The translations under genes were made by a program, and so were the position numbers. A stretch of DNA of 64,000 nt from Escherichia phage phiAPCEc03, in sequence record NC_047754.1. One strand, given 5' to 3'. Positions 13,099 to 60,846 of this stretch are shown in pieces (the first letter of the stretch is position 1; the number at the start of each line of letters is the position of its first letter). Under the pieces are notes generated by a model. The model was not told where the DNA came from. It ran no database searches and saw nothing but the letters and a program-made list of their open reading frames with translations.

Positions 13099-13476
13099 AT
13101 GAACTATGCATATCTAATTATTAATAACAATGTAGTTTGTGGTACTCGCGCCGTTGAGATGGGTATTACAGAAGAAAAGTATAAGTCACTGCCAGAAAAG
13201 GAACAACAATATTATGTTGAAGAAGCTGCTTGGGAATATGCTGATGTTTATCCCGAACAACGTGAAGATCGCGTTACTATTGTTGTTTCTTTGGGGCTGG
13301 TTGGCTGTGATACCGAAGTTGATACAGACCTAGAGACTTTAGAAGAGTGGGGAGAATTGGACATTTCAGTTAAAAACTCTTTAATCCGTGAGGCTTTTTG
13401 GGAAGCAGTTGACTGCCATGTTGTCTTTGAGCCTAACGATGAGGAAGCTGAGAAGCATACTAACCACTGGAGATAA
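13099..13476 (+). CDS. hypothetical acidic protein
   Basis: ORF MNYAYLIINN with AGGAA RBS; a 27-codon hydrophobic mini-ORF lies upstream at 13019-13102. Confidence 0.5.
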   Translation: MNYAYLIINNNVVCGTRAVEMGITEEKYKSLPEKEQQYYVEEAAWEYADVYPEQREDRVTIVVSLGLVGCDTEVDTDLETLEEWGELDISVKNSLIREAFWEAVDCHVVFEPNDEEAEKHTNHWR

Positions 13477-13480
13477 TTAA

Positions 13481-13726
13481 ATGTTAGCGGAACAAGCAAA
13501 ACGTTTAGCCAGGATAAATAGAGCTACACTCCTTAAGAGTAGAAAGAAACCATATAAATACGTTAAAAAGAGAATAGTTTCTTCTGTGGAGATTGGGGGT
13601 TCTTTTGTACAGTTTAATCGTAATGAAATTAGTTATGAAGCTATAAAAGCTCTATATAAAGAAGGTTATACTCTCCAACTATCTAATGATTATGGCACAA
13701 CTATTTTAACTGTTATTTGGGAATAA
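13481..13726 (+). CDS. hypothetical protein
   Basis: 81-aa ORF. Confidence 0.45.
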   Translation: MLAEQAKRLARINRATLLKSRKKPYKYVKKRIVSSVEIGGSFVQFNRNEISYEAIKALYKEGYTLQLSNDYGTTILTVIWE

Positions 13727-14879: not shown

Positions 14880-15469
14880 TGAAGGTTAAATTCTGGTCAG
14901 ACTTGCACCTAGACCACCCTGGAGCACTACGTTTTCGTCCGTGGTTTAAGAACATGAAAGAGCACGATGAATATATTCTAGATACTCTTTCGAAGCATAT
15001 TGGTAAACGAACAAAACTTATTTTGCTAGGAGATATTGCAGTAGGTCGTGAAGGTCTGGCCAAATTAAAGTCGGTTATCCACAATGTTCCTAATCAACTG
15101 ATTATGGGCAATCACGATGCGGAACGTCAAGGACTGAGCATCAGGGACTTAGCGGAAGTTTATGACGATATTCAGGCTCTAGGTAAACAGACTGGAGGTG
15201 GCAAAAAGTTTTGGTTATCTCACTGCCCTTTGCACCCCAATGAACTTCGTGGTAAACTAAATATTCACGGACATGTACATACTATTTCTTTACGTGACCC
15301 ACGTTATATTAATGTCTCATTTGAAATGAGTAAAACTCCAGTTCCACTAGAGGATATTGTGTCTGGTAAGTTTACTAGCTATGATAGAGTAGTTAATTGT
15401 ACTACCGGCGAAGTATTACAAATATGGGAAGATGTAGCTGCTGTATTACGTGGTGATATAAATGTCTGA
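14876..15469 (+). CDS. metallophosphoesterase
   Basis: Motifs SDLHLD, GDIAVG, GNHD and GHVH. Confidence 0.6.
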   Translation: MMKVKFWSDLHLDHPGALRFRPWFKNMKEHDEYILDTLSKHIGKRTKLILLGDIAVGREGLAKLKSVIHNVPNQLIMGNHDAERQGLSIRDLAEVYDDIQALGKQTGGGKKFWLSHCPLHPNELRGKLNIHGHVHTISLRDPRYINVSFEMSKTPVPLEDIVSGKFTSYDRVVNCTTGEVLQIWEDVAAVLRGDINV

Positions 15470-15577
15470 GTATATAGCTGAGGCTATTATTAAACGAATC
15501 ATACAAACAGTAGCAATACTTATAATCATTTGTATTGCTATTGGTACAGGATTGGGCATTTTAATTAAAAGTTTTAT

Positions 15578-15630
15578 TTGCTAAAATGCTTAAGTTTCTG
15601 TATAATTACTTTATAAATTGATGAGAAGGA
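15578..15630 (+). promoter_or_regulatory. T5-type early sigma70 promoter
   Basis: -35 TTGCTA, 17-bp spacer, -10 TATAAT, downstream TTATAAATTGATGAGAAGG. Confidence 0.6.
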
Positions 15631-15636
15631 ATCAAA

Positions 15637-16068
15637 ATGAACAAAGTTGATAAAGCTCTAGTTTTCGCAGCAGCAGATAAGTTTGAACAAGTTAAGGCAA
15701 CTTTCCGAACCTTGTTCCAGTCTTACGTTCAAGATAAGTCTAATCCTATCTCTGAACGTTTGATGGTCTGGGAATGTCATGCTTGCAATGCCCTATTAAT
15801 TGCAGATTATCGTAGCGATATAGATAAAGATCTGTGTGAAATTCTTATCGCTGAGGAGGCAGAACGTTATCAGTTAATCTCTTTCCAAGATTTGGCGGAG
15901 CATATCATTCCTGATGATCTTTGGGATAAATACTATGGCGATCCTGAAGATGAAGGAATGACTCCAGAAGCCTGTATTGAGCTAATCTGCAAAAATCATC
16001 CTGAAATTGCAGAGAAATTTGAAAAAGTTTTTGCTTCTGAGTTCTCCGGCGTTGTTAACGATTGGTAA
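15637..16068 (+). CDS. hypothetical acidic protein
   Basis: 143-aa ORF downstream of the promoter. Confidence 0.6.
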   Translation: MNKVDKALVFAAADKFEQVKATFRTLFQSYVQDKSNPISERLMVWECHACNALLIADYRSDIDKDLCEILIAEEAERYQLISFQDLAEHIIPDDLWDKYYGDPEDEGMTPEACIELICKNHPEIAEKFEKVFASEFSGVVNDW

Positions 16069-40084: not shown

Positions 40085-41458
40085 ATGACTATTGATATTA
40101 ATAAGCTGAAAGAAGAACTTGGTCTGGGTGATCTGGCTAAATCTCTGGAAGGTCTGACCGCTGCTCAGAAAGCTCAGGAAGCTGAACGTATGCGTAAAGA
40201 GCAGGAAGAAAAAGAACTGGCTCGTATGAATGACCTGGTTTCTAAAGCTGTTGGTGAAGACCGTAAGCGTCTGGAAGAGGCTCTGGATCTGGTTAAGTCT
40301 CTGGATGAGAAATCTAAGAAGAGCGCAGAACTGTTTGCACAAACTGTAGAAAAACAACAGGAAACTATTGTTGGTCTTCAGGACGAAATTAAATCTCTGC
40401 TAACAGCTCGTGAAGGTCGTTCCTTTGTTGGTGATAGTGTTGCTAAAGCACTGTACGGTACTCAGGAAAACTTTGAAGACGAAGTAGAAAAACTGGTTCT
40501 GTTGTCTTATGTAATGGAAAAAGGTGTATTCGAAACCGAACACGGTCAAAAACACCTGAAAGCAGTGAATCAGTCCTATTCTGTAGAAGTTTCTAGTGAA
40601 AGCTATGAAACTATTTTCTCCCAGCGTATTATCCGTGACCTGCAGAAAGAGCTGGTAGTTGGCGCACTGTTCGAAGAACTGCCGATGTCTAGTAAAATTC
40701 TTACTATGTTGGTTGAGCCAGACGCTGGTAAAGCTACTTGGGTTGCTGCTTCTACTTATGGTACTGATGCAACTACTGGTAATGAAGTTAAAGGTGCTCT
40801 TAAAGAAATCCACTTCAGTACTTACAAACTGGCTGCTAAGTCCTTCATTACTGATGAAACTGAAGAAGATGCAATCTTCTCTCTGCTGCCTCTGCTGCGT
40901 AAACGCCTGATTGAAGCACACGCTGTTTCTATCGAAGAAGCGTTTATGACTGGTGATGGTTCTGGTAAGCCGAAAGGCCTGTTGACTCTTGCTAGAGAAG
41001 ATGATGCTAAAGTTGCTACTGAAGCTAAAGCTGATGGTACTGTTCTGGTAACTGCTAAAACTATCTCTAAACTGCGTCGTAAACTGGGTCGTCATGGTCT
41101 GAAACTGAGCAAACTGGTACTTATCGTATCTATGGATGCTTACTACGATCTTCTGGAAGATGAAGAATGGCAGGATGTTGCACAGGTTGGTAACGATGCT
41201 GTTAAACTGCAAGGTCAGGTTGGTCGTATTTACGGTCTGCCGGTTGTAGTTTCTGAGTACTTCCCAGCTAAAGCTGCTTCCGCAGAGTTCGCAGTTATTG
41301 TTTATAAAGATAACTTCGTAATGCCGCGTCAGCGTGCTGTTACTGTTGAGCGTGAGCGCCAAGCTGGTAAACAGCGTGACGCATACTACGTTACCCAGCG
41401 TGTTAACCTGCAACGTTACTTTGCAAATGGCGTTGTATCTGGTACTTACGATGCTTAA
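40085..41458 (+). CDS. major capsid protein precursor with N-terminal scaffold-like delta domain
   Basis: 457 aa; N-terminal about 150 aa is a charged coiled coil; size matches T5 pb8 precursor. Confidence 0.8.
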   Translation: MTIDINKLKEELGLGDLAKSLEGLTAAQKAQEAERMRKEQEEKELARMNDLVSKAVGEDRKRLEEALDLVKSLDEKSKKSAELFAQTVEKQQETIVGLQDEIKSLLTAREGRSFVGDSVAKALYGTQENFEDEVEKLVLLSYVMEKGVFETEHGQKHLKAVNQSYSVEVSSESYETIFSQRIIRDLQKELVVGALFEELPMSSKILTMLVEPDAGKATWVAASTYGTDATTGNEVKGALKEIHFSTYKLAAKSFITDETEEDAIFSLLPLLRKRLIEAHAVSIEEAFMTGDGSGKPKGLLTLAREDDAKVATEAKADGTVLVTAKTISKLRRKLGRHGLKLSKLVLIVSMDAYYDLLEDEEWQDVAQVGNDAVKLQGQVGRIYGLPVVVSEYFPAKAASAEFAVIVYKDNFVMPRQRAVTVERERQAGKQRDAYYVTQRVNLQRYFANGVVSGTYDA

Positions 41459-41477
41459 TACAGGCTTTTCAGCCGAT

Positions 41478-41504
41478 AAGGAGAGCTTCGGCTCTCCTTT
41501 TTTA
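41478..41504 (+). terminator. rho-independent terminator
   Basis: Hairpin GGAGAGC-TTCG-GCTCTCC plus T-tract. Confidence 0.75.
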
Positions 41505-41517
41505 TTGGGAAAAATAA

Positions 41518-42030
41518 ATGCAAATAATCACAGCTGAAGATTATAGATTATATGGCGGGTTAAAACGACCTGAACTAGAATCTGGAGTAGAGATGATGAT
41601 TACTGCTGCCAATGCGCTGATTACTAGCCTTTTAGGTATGGATGATGCTGATGCGGTAGACCAGTTAATCAATACAAAACCTACTCGTAAAAAATACTTT
41701 TTAAGTTCTCCCTCAGCTACTTCAGTAACCAAAATGACTATTAATGATAAGGAGATAGATCCCGAACAGTATAAGTTGTACTCTGATGGGGTTATACTTC
41801 TTAAATTTAATCCTCCGGAAGGTTATATGGATGTAGAGTACACACAAGGTGGATTTAATCCAATACCTGAGGATCTCAAACTTGCAGCATGTATGCTAGT
41901 AGATCATTGGCATAAACAGGATTACCGTCAAGCTAAAACAATTGGTGGAGAAACAGTTACTTTTAATAATACTAAGTCTGGTATTCCAGAGCATATTCGT
42001 ACTATTATTGAAGTTTACAGGAGAGTATAA
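41518..42030 (+). CDS. head completion / connector protein (putative)
   Basis: 170-aa ORF after the capsid gene. Confidence 0.45.
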   Translation: MQIITAEDYRLYGGLKRPELESGVEMMITAANALITSLLGMDDADAVDQLINTKPTRKKYFLSSPSATSVTKMTINDKEIDPEQYKLYSDGVILLKFNPPEGYMDVEYTQGGFNPIPEDLKLAACMLVDHWHKQDYRQAKTIGGETVTFNNTKSGIPEHIRTIIEVYRRV

Positions 42031-42797
42031 TGTCTCTTTCTGATTTAGCTACACAAATTATTAAGGAGCAACTAGATACTGTCGGACGTTCCGAGAACAA
42101 TAAAAATACTGTTGTATACTCTGTTGAAACAGGATTAAAAGATCCTACTAGGGACGGTACTGTTGCTCAAGTATCTTTTAAGTTTTCAAAACCTGTATCA
42201 CAAGATCTTCTTAATATTAGAACCGCTTCTATATTAAAAGCTGTATCCTCTAGTTTAGATCTTTCTGGAGATTTAGGTGCTCTAGAGAACTTAATACAAG
42301 CAACCGCTGGTAAAAAATCCTCAGTAGGTAAAAAACGTTCTACTGGTAGAGTGCAGGTAAATTTTGGGGATCCTAGAGACGTAGAAGATGGATATTCTGG
42401 TGCAGTAACAGGTGCTTCAGGACGTTTTGTATCAAATAGCAATATGAAGGTTATTCTGGAGTTGGTTGCTAAAGAATACTTAATAAAGGATATGAAAAAA
42501 GCAGGAGCGCCATTAAAATTTAGAACTGGTCGCTTTGCAAACTCTTTAAAAATTAAAGATGTTATGCTTAGAGACGCAGAGACTAGTAAAGGTGCCCCAG
42601 AACTAAACGTAACATATAACTATATGACTCGTCCATATTCTGTATTCAACCCCGCAGTATCTACATACAGAAGATTATCTCTACGACCTTATCCTGGCGC
42701 TAGAAACCCACAAAAACTTATTGGTGAGGCTATAGCAAAAGCTGCAAGAGACCTGATTCACTCCAGATATAAAATTAAGGTTAATCAAGGAACCTAA
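42030..42797 (+). CDS. structural protein (putative head-tail joining)
   Basis: 255-aa ORF in the head-tail junction block. Confidence 0.45.
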   Translation: MSLSDLATQIIKEQLDTVGRSENNKNTVVYSVETGLKDPTRDGTVAQVSFKFSKPVSQDLLNIRTASILKAVSSSLDLSGDLGALENLIQATAGKKSSVGKKRSTGRVQVNFGDPRDVEDGYSGAVTGASGRFVSNSNMKVILELVAKEYLIKDMKKAGAPLKFRTGRFANSLKIKDVMLRDAETSKGAPELNVTYNYMTRPYSVFNPAVSTYRRLSLRPYPGARNPQKLIGEAIAKAARDLIHSRYKIKVNQGT

Positions 42798-42800
42798 TAA

Positions 42801-43286
42801 ATGGACCATAGAACAAGTATTGCACAAGCTATGGTTGACCGAATCTCTAAACAAATGGATGGTTCTCAACCTGACGAATATTTTAATAACCTATACGGAA
42901 ACGTTTCTCGTCAAACTTATAAATTTGAGGAAATACGAGAGTTTCCTTATGTGGCAGTTCATATCGGAACTGAAACTGGGCAGTATCTTCCTTCGGGCCA
43001 ACAGTGGATGTTTTTAGAACTTCCAATCCTGGTGTACGATAAAGAGAAAACAGACATTCAAGAGCAACTTGAAAAACTCGTAGCGGATATAAAAACCGTT
43101 ATTGACACAGGTGGAAATTTAGAATATACTGTTAGTAAACCTAATGGATCGACCTTCCCATGTGAGGCAACTGATATGATCATTACATCAGTTAGTACAG
43201 ATGAGGGTCTACTGGCCCCATATGGTTTAGCAGAAATAAATGTAACAGTGAGGTATCAGCCTCCACGTAGGTCACTTCGCAGATAA
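42801..43286 (+). CDS. tail terminator protein (p142-like, putative)
   Basis: 161 aa, immediately upstream of the tail tube gene. Confidence 0.45.
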   Translation: MDHRTSIAQAMVDRISKQMDGSQPDEYFNNLYGNVSRQTYKFEEIREFPYVAVHIGTETGQYLPSGQQWMFLELPILVYDKEKTDIQEQLEKLVADIKTVIDTGGNLEYTVSKPNGSTFPCEATDMIITSVSTDEGLLAPYGLAEINVTVRYQPPRRSLRR

Positions 43287-43312
43287 GTTACAGATTAGGA
43301 GAAAATAATTAA

Positions 43313-44707
43313 ATGTCTTTACAACTATTACGTAATACTCGAATCTTCGTGTCTACGGTTAAGACCGGTCACAATAAGACCAACACGCAAGAGATTCTAG
43401 TTCAGGATGATATTTCTTGGGGTCAGGACAGTAACTCAACAGATATTACTGTTAATGAAGCTGGTCCGCGTCCAACTCGTGGTTCTAAACGTTTTAATGA
43501 CTCTTTAAACGCAGCTGAGTGGAGTTTCTCTACTTATATCCTGCCGTATAAAGATAAAAATACTAACAAACAAATTGTTCCTGACTATATGTTATGGCAT
43601 GCACTTTCTAGTGGTAAAGCCCTTAACCTGGAAGGTGATACAGGGGCACACAATAACGAAGCTAACTTTATGGTTAACTTCAAAGATAACTCCTATCATG
43701 AGTTAGCAATGTTACATATTTATATTCTGACTGATAAAGCATGGAGTTATATCGATTCCTGTCAGATTAATCAGGCAGAAGTTAACGTTGATATCGAAGA
43801 TATTGGCCGTGTAACTTGGTCTGGTAATGGTAATCAGCTTATTCCTCTGGATAAGCAACCATTTGACCCAGATAAATTAGGTATTGATGATGAAACTTAT
43901 ATGACTATCCAGAGTTCTTATATTAAGAACAAACTTACTATCCTGAAAATTAAGGATATGGATTCTGGTAAAGCATATGATATTCCTATTACTGGTGGTA
44001 CTTTCACTATTAATAACAACATCACGTACCTAACCCCGAATATTATGTCCCGTGTAAATATTCCGATCGGTTCATTTACTGGTGCATTTGAACTAACTGG
44101 TTCATTAACTGCTTATCTGAATGATAAATTTCTTGGTTCTATGGAGCTGTACAAAGATCTTATCAAAACTCTGAAGGTAGTTAACCGCTTCGAAATTGCT
44201 CTAGTACTTGGTGGTGAATACAAGGAAGAACGTCCTGCGGCTATTCTGGTAGCTAAACAAGCACACGTTAATATTCCTACTATTGAAACTGATGATGTAC
44301 TTGGTACTTCAGTAGAGTTTAAAGCTATTCCATCTGATCTGGATGCTGGTGATGAAGGTTACTTAGGCTTCTCTAGTAAATATACCAAAACAACTATTAA
44401 TAACTTGATTGTTAATGGTGATGGTGCTACTAATGCTGTAACCGCAATTACTGTTAAATCTGCTGGTGATGCTACTACAGTAAACAACTCGGCTACTCTT
44501 CAAATGAGTGTTGAAGTTACTCCTTCTCCCGCAAAGAATAAGGAAGTTACTTGGGCTATCACTGCCGGTGATGCAGCTACTATCAGTGCAACCGGACTGT
44601 TGACAGCAGATGCTAGTAAAACTGGTGCAGTTACTGTGAAAGCTACTGCTAAAGATGGTTCTGGAGTTAAAGGTACTAAACAGATTACTGTAACAGCAGG
44701 TGGCTAA
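43313..44707 (+). CDS. tail tube protein (pb6-like) with C-terminal Ig-like domain
   Basis: 464 aa, same as T5 pb6; C-terminal Ig-like segment. Confidence 0.75.
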   Translation: MSLQLLRNTRIFVSTVKTGHNKTNTQEILVQDDISWGQDSNSTDITVNEAGPRPTRGSKRFNDSLNAAEWSFSTYILPYKDKNTNKQIVPDYMLWHALSSGKALNLEGDTGAHNNEANFMVNFKDNSYHELAMLHIYILTDKAWSYIDSCQINQAEVNVDIEDIGRVTWSGNGNQLIPLDKQPFDPDKLGIDDETYMTIQSSYIKNKLTILKIKDMDSGKAYDIPITGGTFTINNNITYLTPNIMSRVNIPIGSFTGAFELTGSLTAYLNDKFLGSMELYKDLIKTLKVVNRFEIALVLGGEYKEERPAAILVAKQAHVNIPTIETDDVLGTSVEFKAIPSDLDAGDEGYLGFSSKYTKTTINNLIVNGDGATNAVTAITVKSAGDATTVNNSATLQMSVEVTPSPAKNKEVTWAITAGDAATISATGLLTADASKTGAVTVKATAKDGSGVKGTKQITVTAGG

Positions 44708-44711
44708 TTAA

Positions 44712-45611
44712 ATGTACTACTCTCTAATGAGAGAGTCAAAAGTTATAGTTGAGTATGATGGTAGGGCATTTCATTTTGATGCCCTATCAAACTATGATAT
44801 ACAGACTTCCTACGAGGAATTCAAGACTCTTCGTAGGACTGTTCATCGTAGAACTAACTATGCAGACTCTATTATAAATGCTCAAACTCCCTCTTCTATC
44901 TCTCTAGCAGTAAATTTCAGCAATACTCTTACTGAGGCTAACTTCTTTGAATGGTTAGGTTTTGATAGAAAAGGTAATACTTTCTTACTCCCACTATATA
45001 GTAATAATATTGAACCTATTATGTTCAATATCTATATAGTAAACAAAGATAATAACTGTGTATATTTTGAAAACTGCTATGTATCTACAGTAGATTTTTC
45101 TTTAGATAAGAATATACCAATTCTTAATGTTGGTATTGAGTCTGGGAAATTCTCAGAAGTATCTACCTATAGAGAAGCCGCTTCTATTATACAGGGTGAA
45201 GTAATGTCTTACAGCCCAGTAATAGCTTCTACTAATGGCAGCATCTTACCCGGTCTTATTTCTGCCTCTTTATCTTTCCAACAGCAGTGCTCCTGGAGAG
45301 AGGATAAGAGTGTTTTTGATATAAATAAAATTTATAATAATAAAAGAGCCTATGTAACTGAAATGAATGCTTCGGCAACCCTTTCTCTGTATTACTTAAA
45401 ACGTTTTGCAGGAGATATGGTTTATAATATAGAACCGGAGATAGATGTACCTTTAACGATAAGAAATAATAATATTTCTATAGATTTTCCTTCAGCACGT
45501 ATTACAAAACGCCTAGATTTCTCAGATGTGTATAGAGTTGAGTGGGATATTATACCTACTGCCTCCTCAGACCCAGTGAGAATAGATTTCTTTGGAGAAA
45601 TTAAAAAATGA
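44712..45611 (+). CDS. tail protein (p140-like, putative)
   Basis: 299-aa ORF between tail tube and chaperone genes. Confidence 0.4.
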   Translation: MYYSLMRESKVIVEYDGRAFHFDALSNYDIQTSYEEFKTLRRTVHRRTNYADSIINAQTPSSISLAVNFSNTLTEANFFEWLGFDRKGNTFLLPLYSNNIEPIMFNIYIVNKDNNCVYFENCYVSTVDFSLDKNIPILNVGIESGKFSEVSTYREAASIIQGEVMSYSPVIASTNGSILPGLISASLSFQQQCSWREDKSVFDINKIYNNKRAYVTEMNASATLSLYYLKRFAGDMVYNIEPEIDVPLTIRNNNISIDFPSARITKRLDFSDVYRVEWDIIPTASSDPVRIDFFGEIKK

Positions 45612-46012
45612 TTAATTTAAAAGATATTACTCTTGATACTCGTACTATTACTCTTTCCTACCCAGGTATGCCGAACTTTAAACTAGAACTTAACTATATG
45701 TCTCGTGCTACCTCTAAACGTGTTATTTCTTCTGCTAAACGCGATGAATGGGTTAACGGTACTTTGGTTCAGGTACAGGATGATGATAAGTTCATTGAAG
45801 CCTTCGTTGATGCTGCGATTAAAGGTTGGACTGGTTTGACTGTTGGTGACGTTGAAAAACTGATGCTGATTGAAACAGATGCTGATCCTGAGACTGAAGT
45901 TCCTTTTAGTCGCGATAATGCTGTAATGCTTATGCAGAACTCTTCTGCGTTTGATTCCTGGATCAACCAGACAGTGTTCCACTTAGACACTTTTCGTAGC
46001 TCAAAAGCGTAA
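45608..46012 (+). CDS. tail assembly chaperone (putative)
   Basis: 134-aa acidic protein upstream of the tape measure gene. Confidence 0.45.
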   Translation: MINLKDITLDTRTITLSYPGMPNFKLELNYMSRATSKRVISSAKRDEWVNGTLVQVQDDDKFIEAFVDAAIKGWTGLTVGDVEKLMLIETDADPETEVPFSRDNAVMLMQNSSAFDSWINQTVFHLDTFRSSKA

Positions 46013-46073
46013 AGAGTTACTAGATGCTGTTGCTGATTTTGCAGACAAATGTATTAAAAGCTCAGCATCTAAA

Positions 46074-46442
46074 ATGACTAAACAACAATATTTAATACTT
46101 TGCGAGTCAATGGGTATAGAGCCTGATCCTAAGGCTATGCCCGTTGAACTTGAGGATTTTCCACCTATTGTAGCTATTAGTATGAATATTTATAATAGTC
46201 TAGTTGACTGTTTCATACCTGGTGACTTCCCTATCTTTATAGGTAAAGACAAAGCTGCTTTAGGTGTTTTATTTGATATTTATGGGATTACTGATCCTAT
46301 AGAAAAAGAATTTGTTCTACACATTATCAATATATTTGATGCTAAAGCTGTAGACGCTGCACGTAAACGTGCTGAGAAGCATAAGCCGCAAAACGGTAGA
46401 ATACCTAACGTTAAGCCGCACGCCAGATCTCGAGCACGGTAA
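46074..46442 (+). CDS. tail assembly chaperone second ORF (possible frameshift product)
   Basis: 122-aa ORF with no obvious RBS; its frame is open back to 45987 and overlaps the end of the upstream ORF. Confidence 0.4.
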   Translation: MTKQQYLILCESMGIEPDPKAMPVELEDFPPIVAISMNIYNSLVDCFIPGDFPIFIGKDKAALGVLFDIYGITDPIEKEFVLHIINIFDAKAVDAARKRAEKHKPQNGRIPNVKPHARSRAR

Positions 46443-46477
46443 AAGTTTCCTCCAATGGGCGTTCCACGATGAGGCTT

Positions 46478-46509
46478 GGCTCTGGGTGATTTGCCCAGAG
46501 CCTTTTTTA
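46478..46509 (+). terminator. rho-independent terminator
   Basis: Hairpin GGCTCTGGG...CCCAGAGCC plus TTTTTT. Confidence 0.75.
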
Positions 46510-46525
46510 TTGGGAAAAATAAAAT

Positions 46526-49500
46526 ATGACTGATAAGCTAATACGAGAATTACTAATAGACGTTAAACAGAAGGGGGCAACCCGTACTGCAAAGTCTATT
46601 GAAAACGTATCTGATGCATTAGAAAATGCTGCTGCTGCTTCCGAACTGACAAATGAACAGTTAGGTAAAATGCCCAAAACTCTATATTCCATTGAGAGGG
46701 CAGCAGATAGAGCAGCGAAAAGTCTTACTAAAATGCAAGCTAGCAGAGGTATGCTTAGTATTACTAAATCTATTAATGATATAGGAGCTAAGTTAGATGA
46801 TCTCGCTATTACAATGATTGAAGTAGCAGATAAATTAGAAGTCGGATTTGATGGAGTTTCTAGATCTGTTAAAACAATGGGCAATGATGTTGCAGCTGCA
46901 ACAGAGAAGGTTCAAGATAGGTTATATGATACTAATAGGGCTTTAGGAGGTACGGCTAAAGGCTTTAATGATACTACTGGTGCTGCTGGTAGAGCTTCTA
47001 GAGCTATTGGTAATACTTCTGGTTCAGCACGTGGTGCAACTCGTGATTTTGCAGCAATGGCTAAAATTGGTGGTAGTTTACCTATTATGTACGCAGCTCT
47101 TGCTTCCAATATCTTCGTTCTGCAATCCGCGTTCGAACAACTTAAACTAGGTGATCAGTTAAATCGTCTAGAAAAATTTGGTGTTATAGTAGGTACTCAG
47201 ACTGGTACTCCTGTTCAGTCTCTTGCTAGATCACTACAAGAAGCTGCCGGGTATGCTATCTCCTTTGAAGAAGCAATGAGACAAGCATCCTCAGCGTCCG
47301 CTTATGGCTTTGATGCCGAACAACTTAATAAATTTGGTTTAGTAGCTCGTCGTGCTGCTGCTGTTCTTGGTGTTGATATGACTGATGCACTTAACCGTGT
47401 AATTAGGGGCGTATCTAAACAAGAAATCGAACTTCTGGATGAACTTGGTGTCACCATCCGTCTTAATGACGCATACGCTGATTATGTTAAACAGTTAAAT
47501 GCTGCAAACACAGGTATAACATATAATGTTAATAGTCTTACCACTTTCCAGAAACAACAAGCATACGCTAACGCGGTAATTGCTGAATCTACTAAGCGGT
47601 TTGGCTACCTAGATGAAGTACTACGTGCAACTCCATGGGAGCAATTTGCTGCTAATGCAGATGCTGCACTAAGAAAAATACAACAAGCTGCTGCTAAGTA
47701 TTTAGGGCCAGTAATTGATGCTATCAACACAGTATTTTATACATCTCAGGCTTCTATATCTGCTGAGGCAGCTAGAGCTCAAGAAAAAACTAATAGACAG
47801 ATAGACCCTACCAACGTTGGTGCTGTTGCTTTAAGTTTAGCTGCTTCTGAAGAAGGCTATAATAAAGCTCTAGATATGTATAAGGAATCTCTTGATAAGC
47901 GTAATAAGCTAAAATCTGAGTTCGATAAACGAATGGAACAAGCAGATTTCTATACAAAACTAGCTATACGTCAAGTTGGTGAAGGTATTCCTGTTGGTCT
48001 TGCAGCAGCAGGTGCTTCGGAGGCCAATAAGCAATTTGTAGCAGAAACTGCAGCTATGGGTTTACAAGTAACTAGACTTGGTAAAGAAGTAGAGGATTCT
48101 ACTGAAAACCTCAATGCTTGGAAATCAGCGTATCAAGCTGCTGGAGCTGCTGCTGCAAAAGCTAACCCCGAGTTTCAGAAGCAAATTAATCTACAGAGAG
48201 ATACTACTGATCCTGATGCTGTATACGATTTTAACTCTACTGTATTAAAAGGACTAACTGAGCAGCAGAAAGCGTACAATCAGACTAAGAAAACTGCTAG
48301 TGACTTAGCTAATGATATACAGAACGTTGCTCAGAATACAGATACTGCTGCTAAAACTAGTACTACGTTAGCAGATGCTATAAAAAACATAGAATCTCTA
48401 TCTCTAGGTACGGGTAAAAGTGCAGATGAGTATGTTAAAAATCTTAATTTAGGCTATAATACGTTATCTGAGATGAAAACTGCTTCTCAGGCCTTGTCCG
48501 AGTATGTTAAACTAACTGGTAATGAAACTAAAAATCAGTTAGCAGTTCAACAGAAAATAGCCGATGTGTATAATCAAACTAAGGATAAGGAAAAGGCTCA
48601 GGAAGCTGGTAGACGTTTAGAGTTGCAACAGTTAGAAGAGCAAGAAGCTGCTTTACGCCGTGTTCTTCAAACAAACCAGGGAAATAAAGCTGTTGAGAAA
48701 GAAATTGAAAAAATTCAGCTGGAGAAACTTAAACTTACCAATCAGGGTATGGAGGCCCAGAAGAAGATTAAGGATTATACAGATAAAATCCTGGGTGTAG
48801 ATCGTGAGATAGCTCTTCTGAATGACCGCACTATGACTACTACTCAATATAGATTAGCTCAGCTAAAACTAGAACTAACTATAGAGAAAGAGAAGTACGA
48901 ATGGTATACAAAACAAGCGGACAAACAGAAAGAGGCAGAACAGTCTAGACGTGCTCAAGCACAAATAAGCAGAGAAATATGGGAAGCGGAGAAACAGGCA
49001 ACTGCCTCACATGTATCAGCTCTCATGGATGCGCTAGAGGTCAGCCAAACGCAGAGGAATGTTACTGGTCAATCTCAAATTCTTACTGAAAGATTATCCA
49101 TTCTGCAGCAACAGCTGGAGCTGTCTAAGGGCAATACTGAGGAAGAAATTAAATATCGTAATGAGATTTATAAAACTTCGGCGGCCTTAGAGCAGCTTAG
49201 AAAACAGAGAGATATCCAGATGCAGCAACAGGTGGGATCTTCTGTAGGTGCTGTATATACTCCTACAACTGGACTATCTGGGGAGGATAAAGATTTTGCT
49301 GATATGCAAAATAGAATGGCTTCTTATGATCAGGCAATCTCTAAACTATCTGAATTAAATTCTGAAGCAACCGCTGTGGCTCAAAGTATGGGTAACTTAA
49401 CTAACGCTATGATTCAGTTCTCTCAGGGATCCCTAGATACTACCTCCTTGATTGCTTCTGGCATGCAAACTGTATCTTCTATGATTCAGTATAGTACTAG

Positions 49501-50206
49501 TCAACAGGTTAGTGCAATTGATCAGGCTATTGCAGCAGAACAGAAACGTGATGGTAAATCAGAAGCATCTAAAGCTAAGTTGAAGAAGTTGGAAGCTGAA
49601 AAGCTGAAGATTCAACAAGACGCAGCTAAGAAGCAGATTATCATCCAAACTGCAGTAGCTGTAATGCAAGCGGCAACAGCTGTACCATACCCGTTCTCTA
49701 TTCCTTTAATGGTTGCGGCAGGTTTAGCGGGTGCATTGGCGTTAGCACAAGCATCTTCTGCATCTGGTATGTCAAGTATTGCTGATTCTGGGGCGGATAC
49801 AACTAGTTACTTAACCTTAGGAGAGCGTCAGAAGAATATAGATGTGTCCATGTCTGCTAATGCAGGTGAACTATCTTATATTCGTGGCGATCAAGGTATA
49901 GGTAGTGCCAACTCTTTCGTTCCTCGTGCTGAGGGTGGTAATATGTATCCAGGGGTTAGCTATCAAATGGGTGAGCATGGTACAGAAGTAGTTACCCCTA
50001 TGGTTCCTATGAAAGCTACACCTAATGATGAGCTAAAAACCTCGTCTAACTCAACTTCAGGAAGACCTATCATCCTGAATATTAGTGCTATGGATGCTGC
50101 AAGTTTTAGAGAGTTTGCTTCTAGTAATAGTGGTGCTCTAAGAGACGCGGTAGAATTAGCTCTGAATGAGAACGGTGCTAGTCTGAAAACATTAGGAAAT
50201 TCTTAA
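46526..50206 (+). CDS. tape measure protein (pb2-like)
   Basis: 1226-aa Ala/Gln-rich coiled-coil protein with hydrophobic segment near the C-terminus. Confidence 0.85.
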   Translation: MTDKLIRELLIDVKQKGATRTAKSIENVSDALENAAAASELTNEQLGKMPKTLYSIERAADRAAKSLTKMQASRGMLSITKSINDIGAKLDDLAITMIEVADKLEVGFDGVSRSVKTMGNDVAAATEKVQDRLYDTNRALGGTAKGFNDTTGAAGRASRAIGNTSGSARGATRDFAAMAKIGGSLPIMYAALASNIFVLQSAFEQLKLGDQLNRLEKFGVIVGTQTGTPVQSLARSLQEAAGYAISFEEAMRQASSASAYGFDAEQLNKFGLVARRAAAVLGVDMTDALNRVIRGVSKQEIELLDELGVTIRLNDAYADYVKQLNAANTGITYNVNSLTTFQKQQAYANAVIAESTKRFGYLDEVLRATPWEQFAANADAALRKIQQAAAKYLGPVIDAINTVFYTSQASISAEAARAQEKTNRQIDPTNVGAVALSLAASEEGYNKALDMYKESLDKRNKLKSEFDKRMEQADFYTKLAIRQVGEGIPVGLAAAGASEANKQFVAETAAMGLQVTRLGKEVEDSTENLNAWKSAYQAAGAAAAKANPEFQKQINLQRDTTDPDAVYDFNSTVLKGLTEQQKAYNQTKKTASDLANDIQNVAQNTDTAAKTSTTLADAIKNIESLSLGTGKSADEYVKNLNLGYNTLSEMKTASQALSEYVKLTGNETKNQLAVQQKIADVYNQTKDKEKAQEAGRRLELQQLEEQEAALRRVLQTNQGNKAVEKEIEKIQLEKLKLTNQGMEAQKKIKDYTDKILGVDREIALLNDRTMTTTQYRLAQLKLELTIEKEKYEWYTKQADKQKEAEQSRRAQAQISREIWEAEKQATASHVSALMDALEVSQTQRNVTGQSQILTERLSILQQQLELSKGNTEEEIKYRNEIYKTSAALEQLRKQRDIQMQQQVGSSVGAVYTPTTGLSGEDKDFADMQNRMASYDQAISKLSELNSEATAVAQSMGNLTNAMIQFSQGSLDTTSLIASGMQTVSSMIQYSTSQQVSAIDQAIAAEQKRDGKSEASKAKLKKLEAEKLKIQQDAAKKQIIIQTAVAVMQAATAVPYPFSIPLMVAAGLAGALALAQASSASGMSSIADSGADTTSYLTLGERQKNIDVSMSANAGELSYIRGDQGIGSANSFVPRAEGGNMYPGVSYQMGEHGTEVVTPMVPMKATPNDELKTSSNSTSGRPIILNISAMDAASFREFASSNSGALRDAVELALNENGASLKTLGNS

Positions 50207-50210
50207 AACT

Positions 50211-50240
50211 GGAGGAGGACTTTGAGTCCTCCTTTTCTTT
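50211..50240 (+). terminator. rho-independent terminator
   Basis: Hairpin GGAGGAGGAC...GTCCTCC plus T-tract. Confidence 0.7.
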
Positions 50241-50259
50241 ATGGAAAAATAAAAATTTC

Positions 50260-50300
50260 TTGATAAAATTTTCTAATACTATTATAATAATTGTATCTAA
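50260..50300 (+). promoter_or_regulatory. sigma70-type promoter upstream of distal tail genes
   Basis: -35 TTGATA, 17-bp spacer, -10 TATAAT, followed by strong RBS AAGAGGAGAAATTAACTATG. Confidence 0.5.
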
Positions 50301-50315
50301 GAGGAGAAATTAACT

Positions 50316-50930
50316 ATGAGATTACCAGACCCATACACGAATCCAGAACTTTCAGGATTAGGATTCGAAAGTGTTAACCTGATTGATAATGACCCAGTAA
50401 TTCGTGATGAGTTACCAAATGGTAAAGTTAACGAAGTTAAGGTATCTGCTCAATACTGGGGTATAAATATTTCTTATCCAGAATTATTTCCAGATGAATA
50501 TAATGTTCTAGATGCTTTTATTCTAGAATACAAAAGGACTGGTAGTTATATAGATGTTATATTACCCCAATACGAAGCTTTTAGAGTTAGAGGTAATACT
50601 AACTTAGTAAATATACCAGCAGGACAAAAAGGTTCCAATATTACTATGGATACAAAAGGTGTTCTTACCGGTATCCCTAAACCAGGTGATTTATTTAAAT
50701 TATCCAATCACCCAAAAGTTTATAAAATAACATCATTTAATAGATCTGGTAATTCATGGTCTATTAACGTATACCCTGATTTATTTGTAACGACTACTGG
50801 AGCTGAAAAACCAGTATTTAATGGGATACTGTTTAGAACAAAACTCATGAATGGTGATGCTTTCGGATCTACATTAAATAATAACGGAACGTATTCCGGC
50901 ATCTCATTAAATTTACGGGAAAGTTTATGA
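50316..50930 (+). CDS. distal tail protein (pb9-like)
   Basis: 204 aa, same as T5 pb9; follows the tape measure gene. Confidence 0.7.
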   Translation: MRLPDPYTNPELSGLGFESVNLIDNDPVIRDELPNGKVNEVKVSAQYWGINISYPELFPDEYNVLDAFILEYKRTGSYIDVILPQYEAFRVRGNTNLVNIPAGQKGSNITMDTKGVLTGIPKPGDLFKLSNHPKVYKITSFNRSGNSWSINVYPDLFVTTTGAEKPVFNGILFRTKLMNGDAFGSTLNNNGTYSGISLNLRESL

Positions 50931-55839: not shown

Positions 55840-56262
55840 ATGAGTACTGAAAATAGAGTTATAGACTTAGTAATAGATGAGAAAGTACCTTATGGTCTAA
55901 TGATGCAATTCTTAGATGTTGATGATAGTACTTATCCCCCTACAAACACCCCTGTTAACTTAACAGGGTATTCTCTAAAGGGTACTATAAAGAATAGCCT
56001 TGATGAGAATGCGGAAACTTTGGCATCTTTTACTACTAAAATTATTGATGCTGCTCAAGGTGCTATAGCTATAAGTTTACCTGTAGAGGCGGTAGATAAT
56101 ATTGGTGAAAAAGCCACCAAAGAGAGAGATAAGTATAACCCTCGCCAACGTTTTGCAGGATACTATGATATAATTATGACACGAGATGTCATAGGATCAG
56201 CTATTAGCTCTTTTCGTATAATGGAGGGTAAAGTATTTATCAGTGATGGGGTAACTAGATAA
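55840..56262 (+). CDS. collar protein (p132-like)
   Basis: 140 aa, immediately upstream of the tail fiber genes. Confidence 0.55.
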
Positions 56263-58709
56263 TGGCAATAACTACTAAGATTATTGTACAACAAATATTA
56301 AATATTGATGATACTAAAGCTACTGCTAGTAAATTTCCTAGATACACAGTAACTCTTGGAAACTCTATTAGCTCTATTACTGCTATAGAGTTAGTATCCT
56401 CTATAGAGGCCGCTGCTAAATCTGCTGCGGCTGCAAAAGATTCTGAAATAGCTGCTAAAACCTCAGAACTTAATGCTAAGAACTCTGAACAGGAAGCTGC
56501 TATTTCTGCTGGAGCTTCAGAAGCTTCTGCTAATCAGTCTGCTACCTCTGCTACTCAGTCCGCAGCGTCAGCCAATAAGTCTGCAGAATCCGCTGCCGCA
56601 GCTAAAATATCCGAGACTAATGCGAAGACTAGTGAAACTAATGCGAAGACTAGTGAAACTAACGCGAAGACTAGTGAAACTAATGCTGACGCATCAGCTG
56701 CTGCTGCAAAAATTAGTGAGACTAATGCAAAGGCAAGTGAGACTAATGCAGCTCAATCAGCTGCTGATGCAAAACTTAGCGAGGGTAACGCAAAGGTCAG
56801 TGAGACTAATGCAGCTCAATCAGCAGCTGATTCTAGCGGTTTTAGGAATGAGGCGGAAATATTTTCTGGGCAAGCTGCTGCATCGGCATCTGCGGCAAAA
56901 ATCTCTGAAACCAATGCAAAAACCTCGGAAACAAAAGCTAAGGCTAGTGAAACTAATGCTGCGGGATCTGCAACTTCTGCTAGCCAATCTGTAGCTACTA
57001 TTCAAGGACTTAAATCAGATGTCGAACAGTTAAAATCTGATACCCAGGACATTAAAAATAGTGCTATAACAGAGACAACAGCTTTAAAAGCGGATGTCGA
57101 ACAGTTAAAATCTGATACCCAGGCCATTAAAAATAGCGCTATAACAGAGACAACAGCTTTAAAAGCGGATGTTGAGCAACTAAAAACAGATACACAAGGT
57201 ATTAAGGATAGCGCGGTATCTGAGACAACAACTTTAAAAGATCAAGCTGCTGCTTCTGCTGCACAAGCAGGTAATAGTGCTGTTGAGGCCGGGCAACAAG
57301 CTAGCAATGCTGCTGGTAGTGCAAATAGCTCTAAAGTAGAAGCAGACCGTGCAAAGGCAGAAGCAGACCGTGCGGAAGTTGCAGCTAATAGGGATCCTGA
57401 TCTTCAACCATTCCCTGACGTATGGATTCCATTTAATGACTCGCTTGATATGCTCGCAGGTTATTCACCCGGCTATAAGAAAATAACAGTTGGTGAAGAT
57501 GTTATTACAATGCCTTCTGATAAGGTTGTTAGTTTCACGCGTGCGTCAAATGCAACATACATAAATAAGCATGGTGAATTTTGTATTGCTAATATCGATG
57601 AACCCAGATTTGAAAAGCAAGGACTCTTGATTGAAGGCCAGAGGACAAATCACATTACTTTCAGTAATGACCCCGCTTCACTAAATACAGATAAGCACCG
57701 TAGTGATGTTACTTATAATGTTGATAAGTATGGTTTTGCATATGCAACGGCTACAGCTAACGAAAATTCACATGGTGAGTACCCTTCATTATTTTATTGT
57801 AAAACCGTGAATGCAATCAACTGTCAGCAAAATGAATATGTTTCTTTATCTATACGAGTAAAGGCAAACTCGGATATCTATATCACCCCACAATTTTATT
57901 TAGTAGGTAAGGATGGAGGTCTTATTCTCGGTGCTAGATCTTTCATAAGTTGCGAAACCGGCGAAGTTTCTTCTGTAGTAGAAGGGAGGGGGACTATAGC
58001 ACATAGAATATATAGAGAAGACAACGGATGGTTGAAAGTTGAAGCTATGTGTAAATTTGTAGAACGTGGAGGTAGTTCTATTGGATCTGTAAATTATTGT
58101 CGGAATAATGATCAACCTTCGCAAGTTGGGGATACAATATCATTTTGTACTCCGCAATTTGAAAAGGGTTTTTGTGCATCCTCCTTCATTATTACGGGAA
58201 GCACTCCTGCAACAAGGGCTCTGGATTATGTTACTATACCTGCAAGAAATAATTTCTCAGGGACGAATATTTCATTCCTTGCTGAGGTAAGTATCAACTG
58301 GAATAGCTTTCAATTAGATAATATATACCCAATGATAGTGGATAACAACCACTACTTCGTAAGAGGAAAAGCATTTGTTGCGGAATTTGACAGAACCTCC
58401 GTTACACCTTACACGTATGTGGTAACTGAGGATGGATCAACTATTCTGTCCAGAGGTTATTCATTTGAAAAACAATTTTCTCCACATGTATTTGGTTTTA
58501 TTCTCAGTGGCGATGTAGAGGTCACCTCGTTTGTTAATGGTAATAGTGGTGAGACCTCACACGGTTCTACCTGGAAAGGAACGGACTCGGACGCACTAGT
58601 AGAAATAGGCGGTAGACTTTCAGATTCAACTAAATTGTATGGTCATATTCGTAACCTTAGAATATGGAATAGAGTATTAACAGATAGTCAAATGCGGGAG
58701 AAAGTTTAA
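56262..58709 (+). CDS. L-shaped tail fiber proximal subunit (LtfA-like) with tandem coding repeats
   Basis: 815 aa; Ala-rich SETNAKT-type repeats and three 27-aa repeats (DVEQLKSDTQ.IKNSAITETTALKA). Confidence 0.6.
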   Translation: MAITTKIIVQQILNIDDTKATASKFPRYTVTLGNSISSITAIELVSSIEAAAKSAAAAKDSEIAAKTSELNAKNSEQEAAISAGASEASANQSATSATQSAASANKSAESAAAAKISETNAKTSETNAKTSETNAKTSETNADASAAAAKISETNAKASETNAAQSAADAKLSEGNAKVSETNAAQSAADSSGFRNEAEIFSGQAAASASAAKISETNAKTSETKAKASETNAAGSATSASQSVATIQGLKSDVEQLKSDTQDIKNSAITETTALKADVEQLKSDTQAIKNSAITETTALKADVEQLKTDTQGIKDSAVSETTTLKDQAAASAAQAGNSAVEAGQQASNAAGSANSSKVEADRAKAEADRAEVAANRDPDLQPFPDVWIPFNDSLDMLAGYSPGYKKITVGEDVITMPSDKVVSFTRASNATYINKHGEFCIANIDEPRFEKQGLLIEGQRTNHITFSNDPASLNTDKHRSDVTYNVDKYGFAYATATANENSHGEYPSLFYCKTVNAINCQQNEYVSLSIRVKANSDIYITPQFYLVGKDGGLILGARSFISCETGEVSSVVEGRGTIAHRIYREDNGWLKVEAMCKFVERGGSSIGSVNYCRNNDQPSQVGDTISFCTPQFEKGFCASSFIITGSTPATRALDYVTIPARNNFSGTNISFLAEVSINWNSFQLDNIYPMIVDNNHYFVRGKAFVAEFDRTSVTPYTYVVTEDGSTILSRGYSFEKQFSPHVFGFILSGDVEVTSFVNGNSGETSHGSTWKGTDSDALVEIGGRLSDSTKLYGHIRNLRIWNRVLTDSQMREKV

Positions 58710-60810: not shown

Positions 60811-60846
60811 AAGAAACCCCAGTGGACAAAATCCGCTGGGGTTTTT
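60811..60846. terminator. bidirectional rho-independent terminator
   Basis: Hairpin CCCCAG...CTGGGG flanked by A-run upstream and T-run downstream, between convergent gene blocks. Confidence 0.7.

Follow-up and report, generated by a model that had tools for sequence, protein, structure and literature searches.

Tailed phages may possess compact junctions downstream of their major capsid and tail genes, i.e., terminator, Shine-Dalgarno (SD) sequence, and start codon in close succession, and these represent partial terminators which grade late-operon expression. The closest described junctions to those considered here are found in phage T5, two records of which were compared (AY543070, L087, and AY587007, L030). 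Both annotate rho-independent terminators at three late positions, in AY543070 after T5.149 (pb8), T5.142, and T5.140 (pb2). Also annotated in AY543070 are promoters P-J5 and P-G25. Transcripts from both (PJ5 and PG25) have been detected by Klimuk et al., using primer extension, from 30 min after infection, and both thus are late promoters (PMC7472727). Three terminators along with P-G25, that is, are already known features, as annotated in T5 records. The subject here is a short repeated motif, including the 11-mer GGAAAAATAAA, which is found directly following three terminators in the corresponding region of Escherichia phage phiAPCEc03. The DNA analyzed is a stretch of 64,000 nucleotides (nt) of record NC_047754.1, which in its entirety is referred to as the window. 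The three junctions are described as sites 1, 2, and 3, and these precede, respectively, the head-completion gene, the tape-measure gene (pb2), and the distal tail protein gene. An earlier note on this DNA viewed the motif as suggestive of a late promoter or instead of an anti-termination/re-initiation element, specific to this phage group.

Very probably the three sites are instead internal rho-independent terminators, with the motif at sites 1 and 2 consisting of terminator tail, weak SD, and spacer, and the motif at site 3 consisting of terminator tail along with the upstream part of P-G25. The motif, that is, is a composite, not a single element. As judged from sequence comparison, the window comes from a T5-like phage (Tequintavirus), of which it represents the late structural region, with its 41-47 kb segment 94-96% identical to many Tequintavirus genomes. 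Close relatives considered are 28 IMG/VR loci of Tequintavirus and Epseptimavirus. More distant relatives are eight genomes, i.e., Sugarlandvirus (a Klebsiella phage), L029 and L036 (two genera, 58% protein identity), Enterobacter phage KKP_3711, and four Vibrio phages. Among the latter, junctions were read in phi3, Cilsick, and D124, with vspsw1 left out of that reading.

Terminators and the Repeated Motif

The 11-mer GGAAAAATAAA is present in exactly three copies in the 64 kb, all at the three late junctions and in each case within a few bases 3' of one of the three strongest late-operon terminators. This is versus an expectation of 0.27 copies, and none of 100 shuffles reaches three. The occurrence of a motif after three late terminators, as the earlier note had pointed out, thus is real and non-random, and the terminator positions provided there (41478-41504, 46478-46509, and 50211-50240) were only a few bases off. 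The 17-mer TTATTGGGAAAAATAAA is present in exactly two copies in the window, and a repeat search places all three sites into a single in-register family (D7). The three motif-bearing terminators also are the top-ranked terminator-like sites within 34-54 kb. The motif was not seen after other terminators of the window, including the strong one at 60812-60846 which closes the late operon.

All three sites have the anatomy of an intrinsic terminator, that is, stems of 9-11 base pairs (bp), with folding free energies (dG) of -14.7 to -20.3 kcal/mol, which are followed by TTTTTTATT or TTTTCTTTAT. The hairpin of site 1 starts 20 nt past the end of the major head protein gene. The T5 terminators are found at the same positions, with hairpins and U-tracts which are identical or nearly so. 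More generally, the site 1 hairpin is kept in all genera checked, with a compensatory G-C to A-U change in L017 and with a different stem in the Vibrio phages. At site 2, compensatory stems are seen as GGCTCTGGG/CCCAGAGCC versus GGCCTAGGG/CCCTAGGCC (Sugarlandvirus), GGCTCTGAG/CTCAGAGCC, and GCTCTGAGG/CCTCAGAGC, with KKP_3711 and Vibrio phages, besides Sugarlandvirus, displaying such changes. These stem changes were judged by inspection along with folding of each sequence, rather than by a formal covariation statistic or pair count, because MAFFT misaligned some of the site 2 hairpins and stems consequently were folded one by one, with the L029 site 2 stem read by eye. Folding energies of these stems are -16 to -21 kcal/mol, and at site 3 six unrelated stem sequences are found at the same position across the genera checked.

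The tail is conserved along with the hairpin, i.e., at sites 1 and 2 the enterobacterial genera and Vibrio phage phi3 all keep TTTTTTATT, differing from it by one base at most. Cilsick and D124 possess other T-rich tails instead. Among the close relatives, L004 has a tract of 13 Ts. A terminator directly preceding the head-completion/adaptor gene is found also in very distant environmental phages. Across the 28 close relatives the three intergenic junctions are almost invariant, and the flanking codons look, by eye and uncounted, as though they vary at mostly synonymous positions. From the literature, nothing usable was found for T5-like phages in the way of Term-seq, transcript-end maps, RNA-seq-based transcription start sites, or in vitro termination data, and the P-G25 and P-J5 sequences, searched as strings, gave no literature match.

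A second, smaller hairpin, GGCT-TTTC-AGCC (41463-41474), with GATA following, lies past the capsid gene and ahead of terminator 1. Other genera keep it with other sequences (GGC-TATACT-GCC, GGCA-CTAAT-TGCC, GGC-TTAAC-GCC, and GGCT-AAT-AGCC), and it may play a role in stabilization or processing of mRNA 3' ends.

Ribosome-Binding Sites at Sites 1 and 2

Beyond the U-tract, sites 1 and 2 look like sites of translation initiation, with GGGA found 7 nt and 10 nt, respectively, before an ATG. The energy of pairing between this GGGA and the anti-SD is -4.2 kcal/mol at both sites, which is weaker than is seen with most of the 17 late genes scored. Values for the terminase, protease, and P-G25-driven genes, for example, are -9 to -10.6 kcal/mol. 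GGGAA precedes as well the gene for pb3 (start at 50927).

The search for the motif among T5-like relatives which the earlier note had proposed gave a divided result. Hairpin and TTTTTTATT indeed are kept at sites 1 and 2, but in other genera canonical SDs (GGAGG, GAGGT, AGAGG, and AGGTG) replace GGGA, with GGGA or GGGT found in some. As read at this position, other genera have GGGT, AGAGG, GGAG, or GGAGG at site 1 and GGA, GAGGT, AGGTGA, or AGGAG at site 2. The distant genera nevertheless always display a cluster of Gs 5-10 nt before the ATG. As SD and spacer, site 1 orthologs have GGGT-AAAAT, AGAGGT-ATATA, TGGAGT-AAAT, GGGT-ACTAC, GGAGGT-AATAAA, GGGGAATACG, and AGGAGGTAAGAA, and site 2 orthologs have GGAAAAAATC, GGAAAAATT, GAGGTAATAAA, AGGTGAATA, AGGAGAAAACTCATA, and GGAGAAAACA. 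Variation exists among close relatives as well, with L011 and L024 possessing AGGA in place of GGGA at site 1, and with the A-run plus the bases preceding the pb2 ATG subject to 1-3 nt indels or substitutions (AAAAT, AAAAC, AAATT, or missing) in Tequintavirus and Epseptimavirus. A G-cluster which is retained despite a varying sequence and spacer is the signature of an SD plus spacer, and not of a fixed DNA signal.

The start codons of sites 1 and 2 are, going by their sequence context, authentic. The Pfam HCP profile aligns with residues 2-170 of the open reading frame (ORF) starting at 41518, and the N-terminus of the head-completion protein is conserved across genera, down to 31% identity. 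In the Seabear record, which is both independent and curated, the TTGGG of site 1 indeed is annotated as the ribosome-binding site (RBS) of the head-completion gene. As with the compact junctions of tailed phages generally, hairpin and U-tract are found here 20-35 nt past a gene encoding an abundant structural protein, and the next start codon is no more than about 20 nt from the U-tract. Unlike those junctions, the SD is unusually weak, and two junctions of a single genome possess an identical linker.

T5 differs from the window at site 2. There a 750-bp insertion, encoding T5.141, starts immediately past TTTTTTATT and removes GGGAAAAATAAAAT, i.e., the linker which the window possesses, and T5 thus dispenses with the motif at this site. 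The T5 pb2 ATG instead overlaps the stop codon of the inserted ORF, with CAGGAAAACATTAG upstream, including an RBS-like AGGAAA supplied by the insert. T5.141 (15020-15772 in T5; L014/L087) possesses a CapR-homology domain along with a DUF4379 treble-clef zinc finger (Pfam), and is taken here to be homing-endonuclease-like.

Other insertions and rearrangements are seen about these same junctions. In L017 (9376-9948), L019, and L024 a related ORF follows the capsid gene and precedes terminator 1, with terminator and linker intact. CapR-homology/DUF4379 ORFs, that is, are inserted exactly at motif junctions, at site 2 in T5 and at the capsid stop codon in three other phages. Three Vibrio relatives, L033 (15548-16303), L208 (6927-7688), and L209 (6879-7616), have an extra gene of approximately 250 amino acids (aa) between terminator 2 and the tape-measure gene, and it is this extra gene, not the tape-measure gene, which the terminator-plus-SD junction precedes. 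In one Tequintavirus contig, L013 (15183-15310), a second BLAST match points to an apparent tandem duplication of approximately 77 nt close to where the tape-measure gene starts.

Site 3 and Promoter P-G25

At site 3 the earlier note's suggestion of a late promoter holds. A hexamer scan finds a sigma-70 core, matching 9-11 of 12 consensus positions, 47-58 nt past the tape-measure stop codon in nine of nine genomes, and the terminator-plus-promoter tandem is conserved in all nine. In AY543070 a 75-nt 'promoter P-G 25' feature has as its first base the final one of the third terminator, reads TATGGAAAAATAAAAATTTCTTGATAAAATTTTCCAATACTATTATAATATTG..., and includes TATGGAAAAATAAAAATTTC. The motif lies inside of that feature, and the site 3 copy therefore is the upstream end of P-G25. 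AY587007 describes the same site as 'putative late promoter T5P39'. Hexamers, their spacing, their conservation, and late transcripts all are those of a sigma-70 promoter.

The T5 P-G25, which reportedly is to be ascribed to Gentz and Bujard in 1985, is the ortholog of that of the window. In both, P-G25 comes after the same terminator, is arranged as TATGGAAAAATAAAAATTTC-TTGATA-17-TATAAT, and is followed by a AGAGGAGAAATTAACTATG RBS, with few substitutions downstream of the -35 hexamer and with about 81-98% identity around the junction, the two phages being different Tequintavirus species. Presumably this RBS is the one found in commercial T5-promoter expression vectors.

UP elements of sigma-70 promoters are described by the Estrem/Gourse consensus. 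The site 3 motif is likewise rich in A-tracts, is located at about -52 to -36, and directly adjoins the -35 hexamer. Its distal half (TTTATGG) fits the consensus poorly, however, and overlaps the terminator T-tract. By position and composition the A-tract of site 3 thus may serve as an UP element, and a published alignment of T5 promoters indicates such elements (PMC7472727, Fig. S5 legend). In every genus the segment from T-tract to -35 is A/T-rich, though without the exact motif being kept, i.e., exact GGAAAAATAAA at site 3 is limited to Tequintavirus and Epseptimavirus.

The 11-mer which is common to site 3 and to sites 1 and 2 is best viewed as a low-complexity convergence, that is, as T-tract, GG, and A-tract, though common descent may be involved. 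A degenerate-motif scan of IMG/VR matched more than 120 contigs, mostly unrelated and with giant viruses among them, and was uninformative because the pattern is one of low complexity. Sites 2 and 3 share a more extended similarity (27 of 36 positions identical, TGATAA included), which was considered as an indication of common descent or of a hidden -35 and then rejected, the TGATAA being explained by T-D-K codons.

A mini-ORF of three codons, ATG-GAA-AAA-TAA (50241-50252), is present within the site 3 motif and lacks an SD of its own. Probably it is due to chance.

Features of the three junctions and of surrounding genes, with coordinates as found within the window
Feature	Coordinates	Strand	Description
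Site 1 hairpin	41478-41499	+	AAGGAGAGC-TTCG-GCTCTCCTT; 9 bp, UUCG loop; dG about -14.7 kcal/mol
Site 1 U-tract	41498-41506	+	TTTTTTATT
Site 1 linker	41507-41517	+	GGGAAAAATAA; weak SD GGGA plus A-rich 7-nt spacer; ATG at 41518
Site 2 hairpin	46478-46502	+	GGCTCTGGGT-GATTT-GCCCAGAGCC; 10 bp; dG about -20 kcal/mol; after ORF 46074-46442
Site 2 U-tract	46503-46511	+	TTTTTTATT
Site 2 linker	46512-46525	+	GGGAAAAATAAAAT; weak SD GGGA plus A-rich 10-nt spacer; ATG at 46526
Site 3 terminator	50211-50242	+	hairpin 50211-50235 (GGAGGAGGAC-TTTGA-GTCCTCC) plus T-tract TTTTCTTTAT; after pb2
Site 3 motif	50243-50259	+	GGAAAAATAAAAATTTC; A/T-rich, UP-like segment at the upstream end of P-G25, about -52 to -36
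P-G25 core	50260-50288	+	TTGATA-17 nt-TATAAT; 11 of 12 consensus matches
Distal tail gene SD and ATG	50300-50318	+	AGAGGAG, ATG at 50316; -9.1 kcal/mol; served by P-G25
P-J5, the other late promoter of the block	43102-43130	+	inside gene 42801-43286; in AY543070 'promoter P-J 5' inside T5.146
Major head protein gene	40085-41458		
Head-completion gene	41518-42030		ATG at 41518
Chaperone-like ORFs	45608-46012 and 46074-46442		tail assembly chaperone-like
Tape-measure gene pb2	46526-50206		ATG at 46526
Distal tail protein gene	50316-50930		

Proposed Terminator Read-Through

The order of late genes, as seen from annotated relatives, is terminase, portal, protease, major head protein, head completion, tail completion, tail terminator, major tail, minor tail, two chaperone-like ORFs, tape measure pb2, distal tail protein, pb3, and then further genes. 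Neither the AY543070 annotation nor scans place a promoter between terminator 1 and P-J5, nor between terminator 2 and P-G25. With no intervening promoters, the genes for head completion, tail completion, and tail terminator, along with pb2, would be reached only by read-through of terminators.

The resulting scheme would be as follows. Late transcripts which are started upstream of the head genes, as suggested by a T5 promoter annotated upstream of oad, would mostly end at terminator 1, and those which are started at P-J5 would mostly end at terminator 2. Terminated RNAs would retain a protective, stabilizing 3' hairpin. The transcripts which instead read through would carry, immediately past the hairpin, 20 unstructured nt rich in U and A with a weak SD among them, and a role of that U/A-rich linker in binding S1 or as an enhancer is possible. 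Leaky terminator and weak RBS together would give low output of low-copy proteins whose genes lie behind the high-copy capsid and tail-tube genes. In T5 virions the proteins in question indeed are of low copy relative to the capsid and tail-tube proteins. Terminator 3 would close the pb2 unit, with P-G25 then restarting transcription for the distal tail genes, which have a strong RBS. Both partial read-through and a role in stoichiometry are suggested by this arrangement.

Several points weigh against the reading of these sites as terminators plus, at sites 1 and 2, RBSs. GGGA is a weak SD, and the sole ground for supposing that terminators 1 and 2 leak is an absence of promoters in between. 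The sharing of the exact 11-mer with site 3 is unexplained beyond composition, and in AY587007 a promoter, T5P40, is annotated across site 1. Furthermore, sites 1 and 2 are identical to one another over 20-25 nt in both Tequintavirus and Epseptimavirus, which is longer than a U-tract plus a 4-nt SD should need, and the two linkers also are alike within Epseptimavirus and within L036 (TTTATTTGGAG and TTTATTTGAGG). This excess of identity could be due to selection toward one optimum, to gene conversion now and then, or to a shared regulator.

Alternative Explanations

A shared regulator is the basis of the alternative which survives best, though it too is unlikely. By this explanation sites 1 and 2 are a shared translational operator for the head-completion and tape-measure genes, bound by a phage protein or RNA which would regulate jointly the translation of these two read-through-dependent genes. 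The partner could be the UUUCCUCCAA...GGGCGUUCCACG element, acting as a cis anti-SD or as an RNA derived from a 3' untranslated region (UTR), or could be a phage RegA-like protein. The identity of the two sites, which includes non-SD positions, would be accounted for, as would the likeness of the L036 linkers. A 35-nt element containing UUUCCUCCAA furthermore is conserved across genera just upstream of terminator 2 and is partly complementary to GGGAAA. That complementarity is short, however, such as any anti-SD-like sequence has with any SD, and there is no known binding factor. L029 and Vibrio phage phi3 possess dissimilar linkers at the two sites, and T5 has lost its site 2 copy altogether.

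The element just mentioned spans approximately 35 nt (AAGTTTCCTCCAATGGGCGTTCCACGATGAGGCTT, 46443-46477), lies in the gap from the end of ORF 46074-46442 to terminator 2, and has an anti-SD-like CCUCC inside. It is conserved in the Klebsiella and Enterobacter phages, L029, L036, and Vibrio phages phi3 and Cilsick, with D124 keeping only TTTCTCCAAT. It is absent from distant environmental relatives and has no Rfam match. As its indels are not multiples of three, it is non-coding. Possible roles are those of a cis anti-SD, of a protein-binding site, or of the seed for a 3' UTR-derived RNA which shares terminator 2.

It is highly unlikely that a dedicated late promoter exists at all three junctions, with the motif as UP-like part at sites 1 and 2 and with the cores there falling within the first codons of the next gene. 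What stood at site 3, that is, does not extend to the other two sites. The idea is an older one, T5P40 in AY587007 covering site 1 along with the motif, and the earlier note's suggestion for site 1 thus had been proposed before, as an unverified prediction. It may be argued as well that the same 11-mer is found at site 3, 6 nt upstream of a real -35, and that in family D7 the CTGATA of site 2 has the same offset as the TTGATA of site 3. At sites 1 and 2, however, the motif abuts the start codon, with only 9-20 nt between U-tract and ATG, and a promoter for that gene therefore cannot fit. Instead it would start inside of the gene which it precedes, a gene, at site 1, whose N-terminus is conserved and profile-supported. 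When the 25 nt before and the 90 nt after start codons are scanned, sites 1 and 2 reach at best 5-8 of 12 sigma-70 consensus positions, not above background and at positions which shift between genera, versus the fixed position and 9-11 of 12 matches of site 3.

The best candidate at site 1 is TTTTTA-18-AATAAT, of which AATAAT consists of ATA-ATC codons and is AATCAT (ATC-ATC) in about half of Tequintavirus genomes, so that it is not under selection as a -10. The TGATAA of site 2 consists of codons of a conserved Thr-Asp-Lys of pb2. The distance between motif and ATG varies via the 1-3 nt indels noted above, T5 lacks the motif at site 2, and P-J5, although a late promoter, has no motif upstream of it in the window or in the T5 annotation.

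T5P40 itself is a computational prediction with poor, non-conserved hexamers, is absent from AY543070, and needs a truncated version of a conserved ORF. The two T5 records thus disagree, with the head-completion gene cut to 145 aa in AY587007 (ORF137; 13119-13680), where T5P40 extends over the terminator along with the first codons, versus a full 170-aa ORF, with no promoter, in AY543070 (10001-10513). The Pfam HCP match along with cross-genus conservation support the long ORF, and overall the evidence argues against both the T5P40 promoter and the truncated ORF137 of AY587007.

Known anti-termination signals, such as lambda nut and HK022 put, act from upstream. Scarcely credible, then, and least so of the three alternatives, is that the motif is a cis anti-termination or re-initiation signal, read by a host or phage factor at late terminators, for while read-through is needed by the genes which follow terminators 1 and 2, there being no promoter before the next known one, the motif is strongly conserved in Tequintavirus and Epseptimavirus, and the mechanism of the T5 early-to-late switch is described as unresolved (PMC7472727), the motif nonetheless lies downstream of the hairpin at or past the point of RNA release, possesses no significant structure (-1.5 kcal/mol, equaled by 18 of 200 shuffles), matches nothing in Rfam, is conserved beyond its U-tract only among close relatives, with ordinary SDs found elsewhere instead, and is done without by T5 at site 2.

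The structure in question is an AU mini-hairpin, UUUAUU-GGGAAA-AAUAAA (6 bp, with the SD in its loop), which as a candidate was rejected on the basis of those shuffles. An Rfam scan of 41-51 kb, at E<=1, returned one chance snoRNA match only.

Additional Observations

Preceding terminator 2, ORF 46074-46442 has no SD (-0.1 kcal/mol). Its frame is open from 45987 and overlaps the last 26 nt of ORF 45608-46012 in the +1 (or -2) frame. The sequence of 45987-46074 suggests a programmed frameshift of the tail assembly chaperone, of the G/GT type, though not of the usual -1 kind.

Downstream of site 3, the distal tail protein ortholog of phage OSYSP (L001, MF402939; 15320-15934) is annotated as 'DNA polymerase I', which looks like an annotation error propagated from phiLLS. 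Further downstream, at 56400-57240, tandem repeat families of 21 nt and 75 nt (D1, D2, and D4) lie inside ORF 56262-58709, which probably is a tail fiber gene.

Meaning for T5-Like Phages

To the extent that sites 1, 2, and 3 are internal terminators, as followed at sites 1 and 2 by a weak RBS and at site 3 by P-G25, the result clarifies annotation rather than providing a new mechanism, and in that sense matters little. The terminator/weak-RBS and terminator/promoter architecture nevertheless is a conserved one among Demerecviridae, with phages of hosts ranging from Escherichia to Vibrio possessing it. It would provide a simple model for how T5-like phages may grade their expression of capsid, connector, tail-tube, and tape-measure proteins using host RNA polymerase alone.

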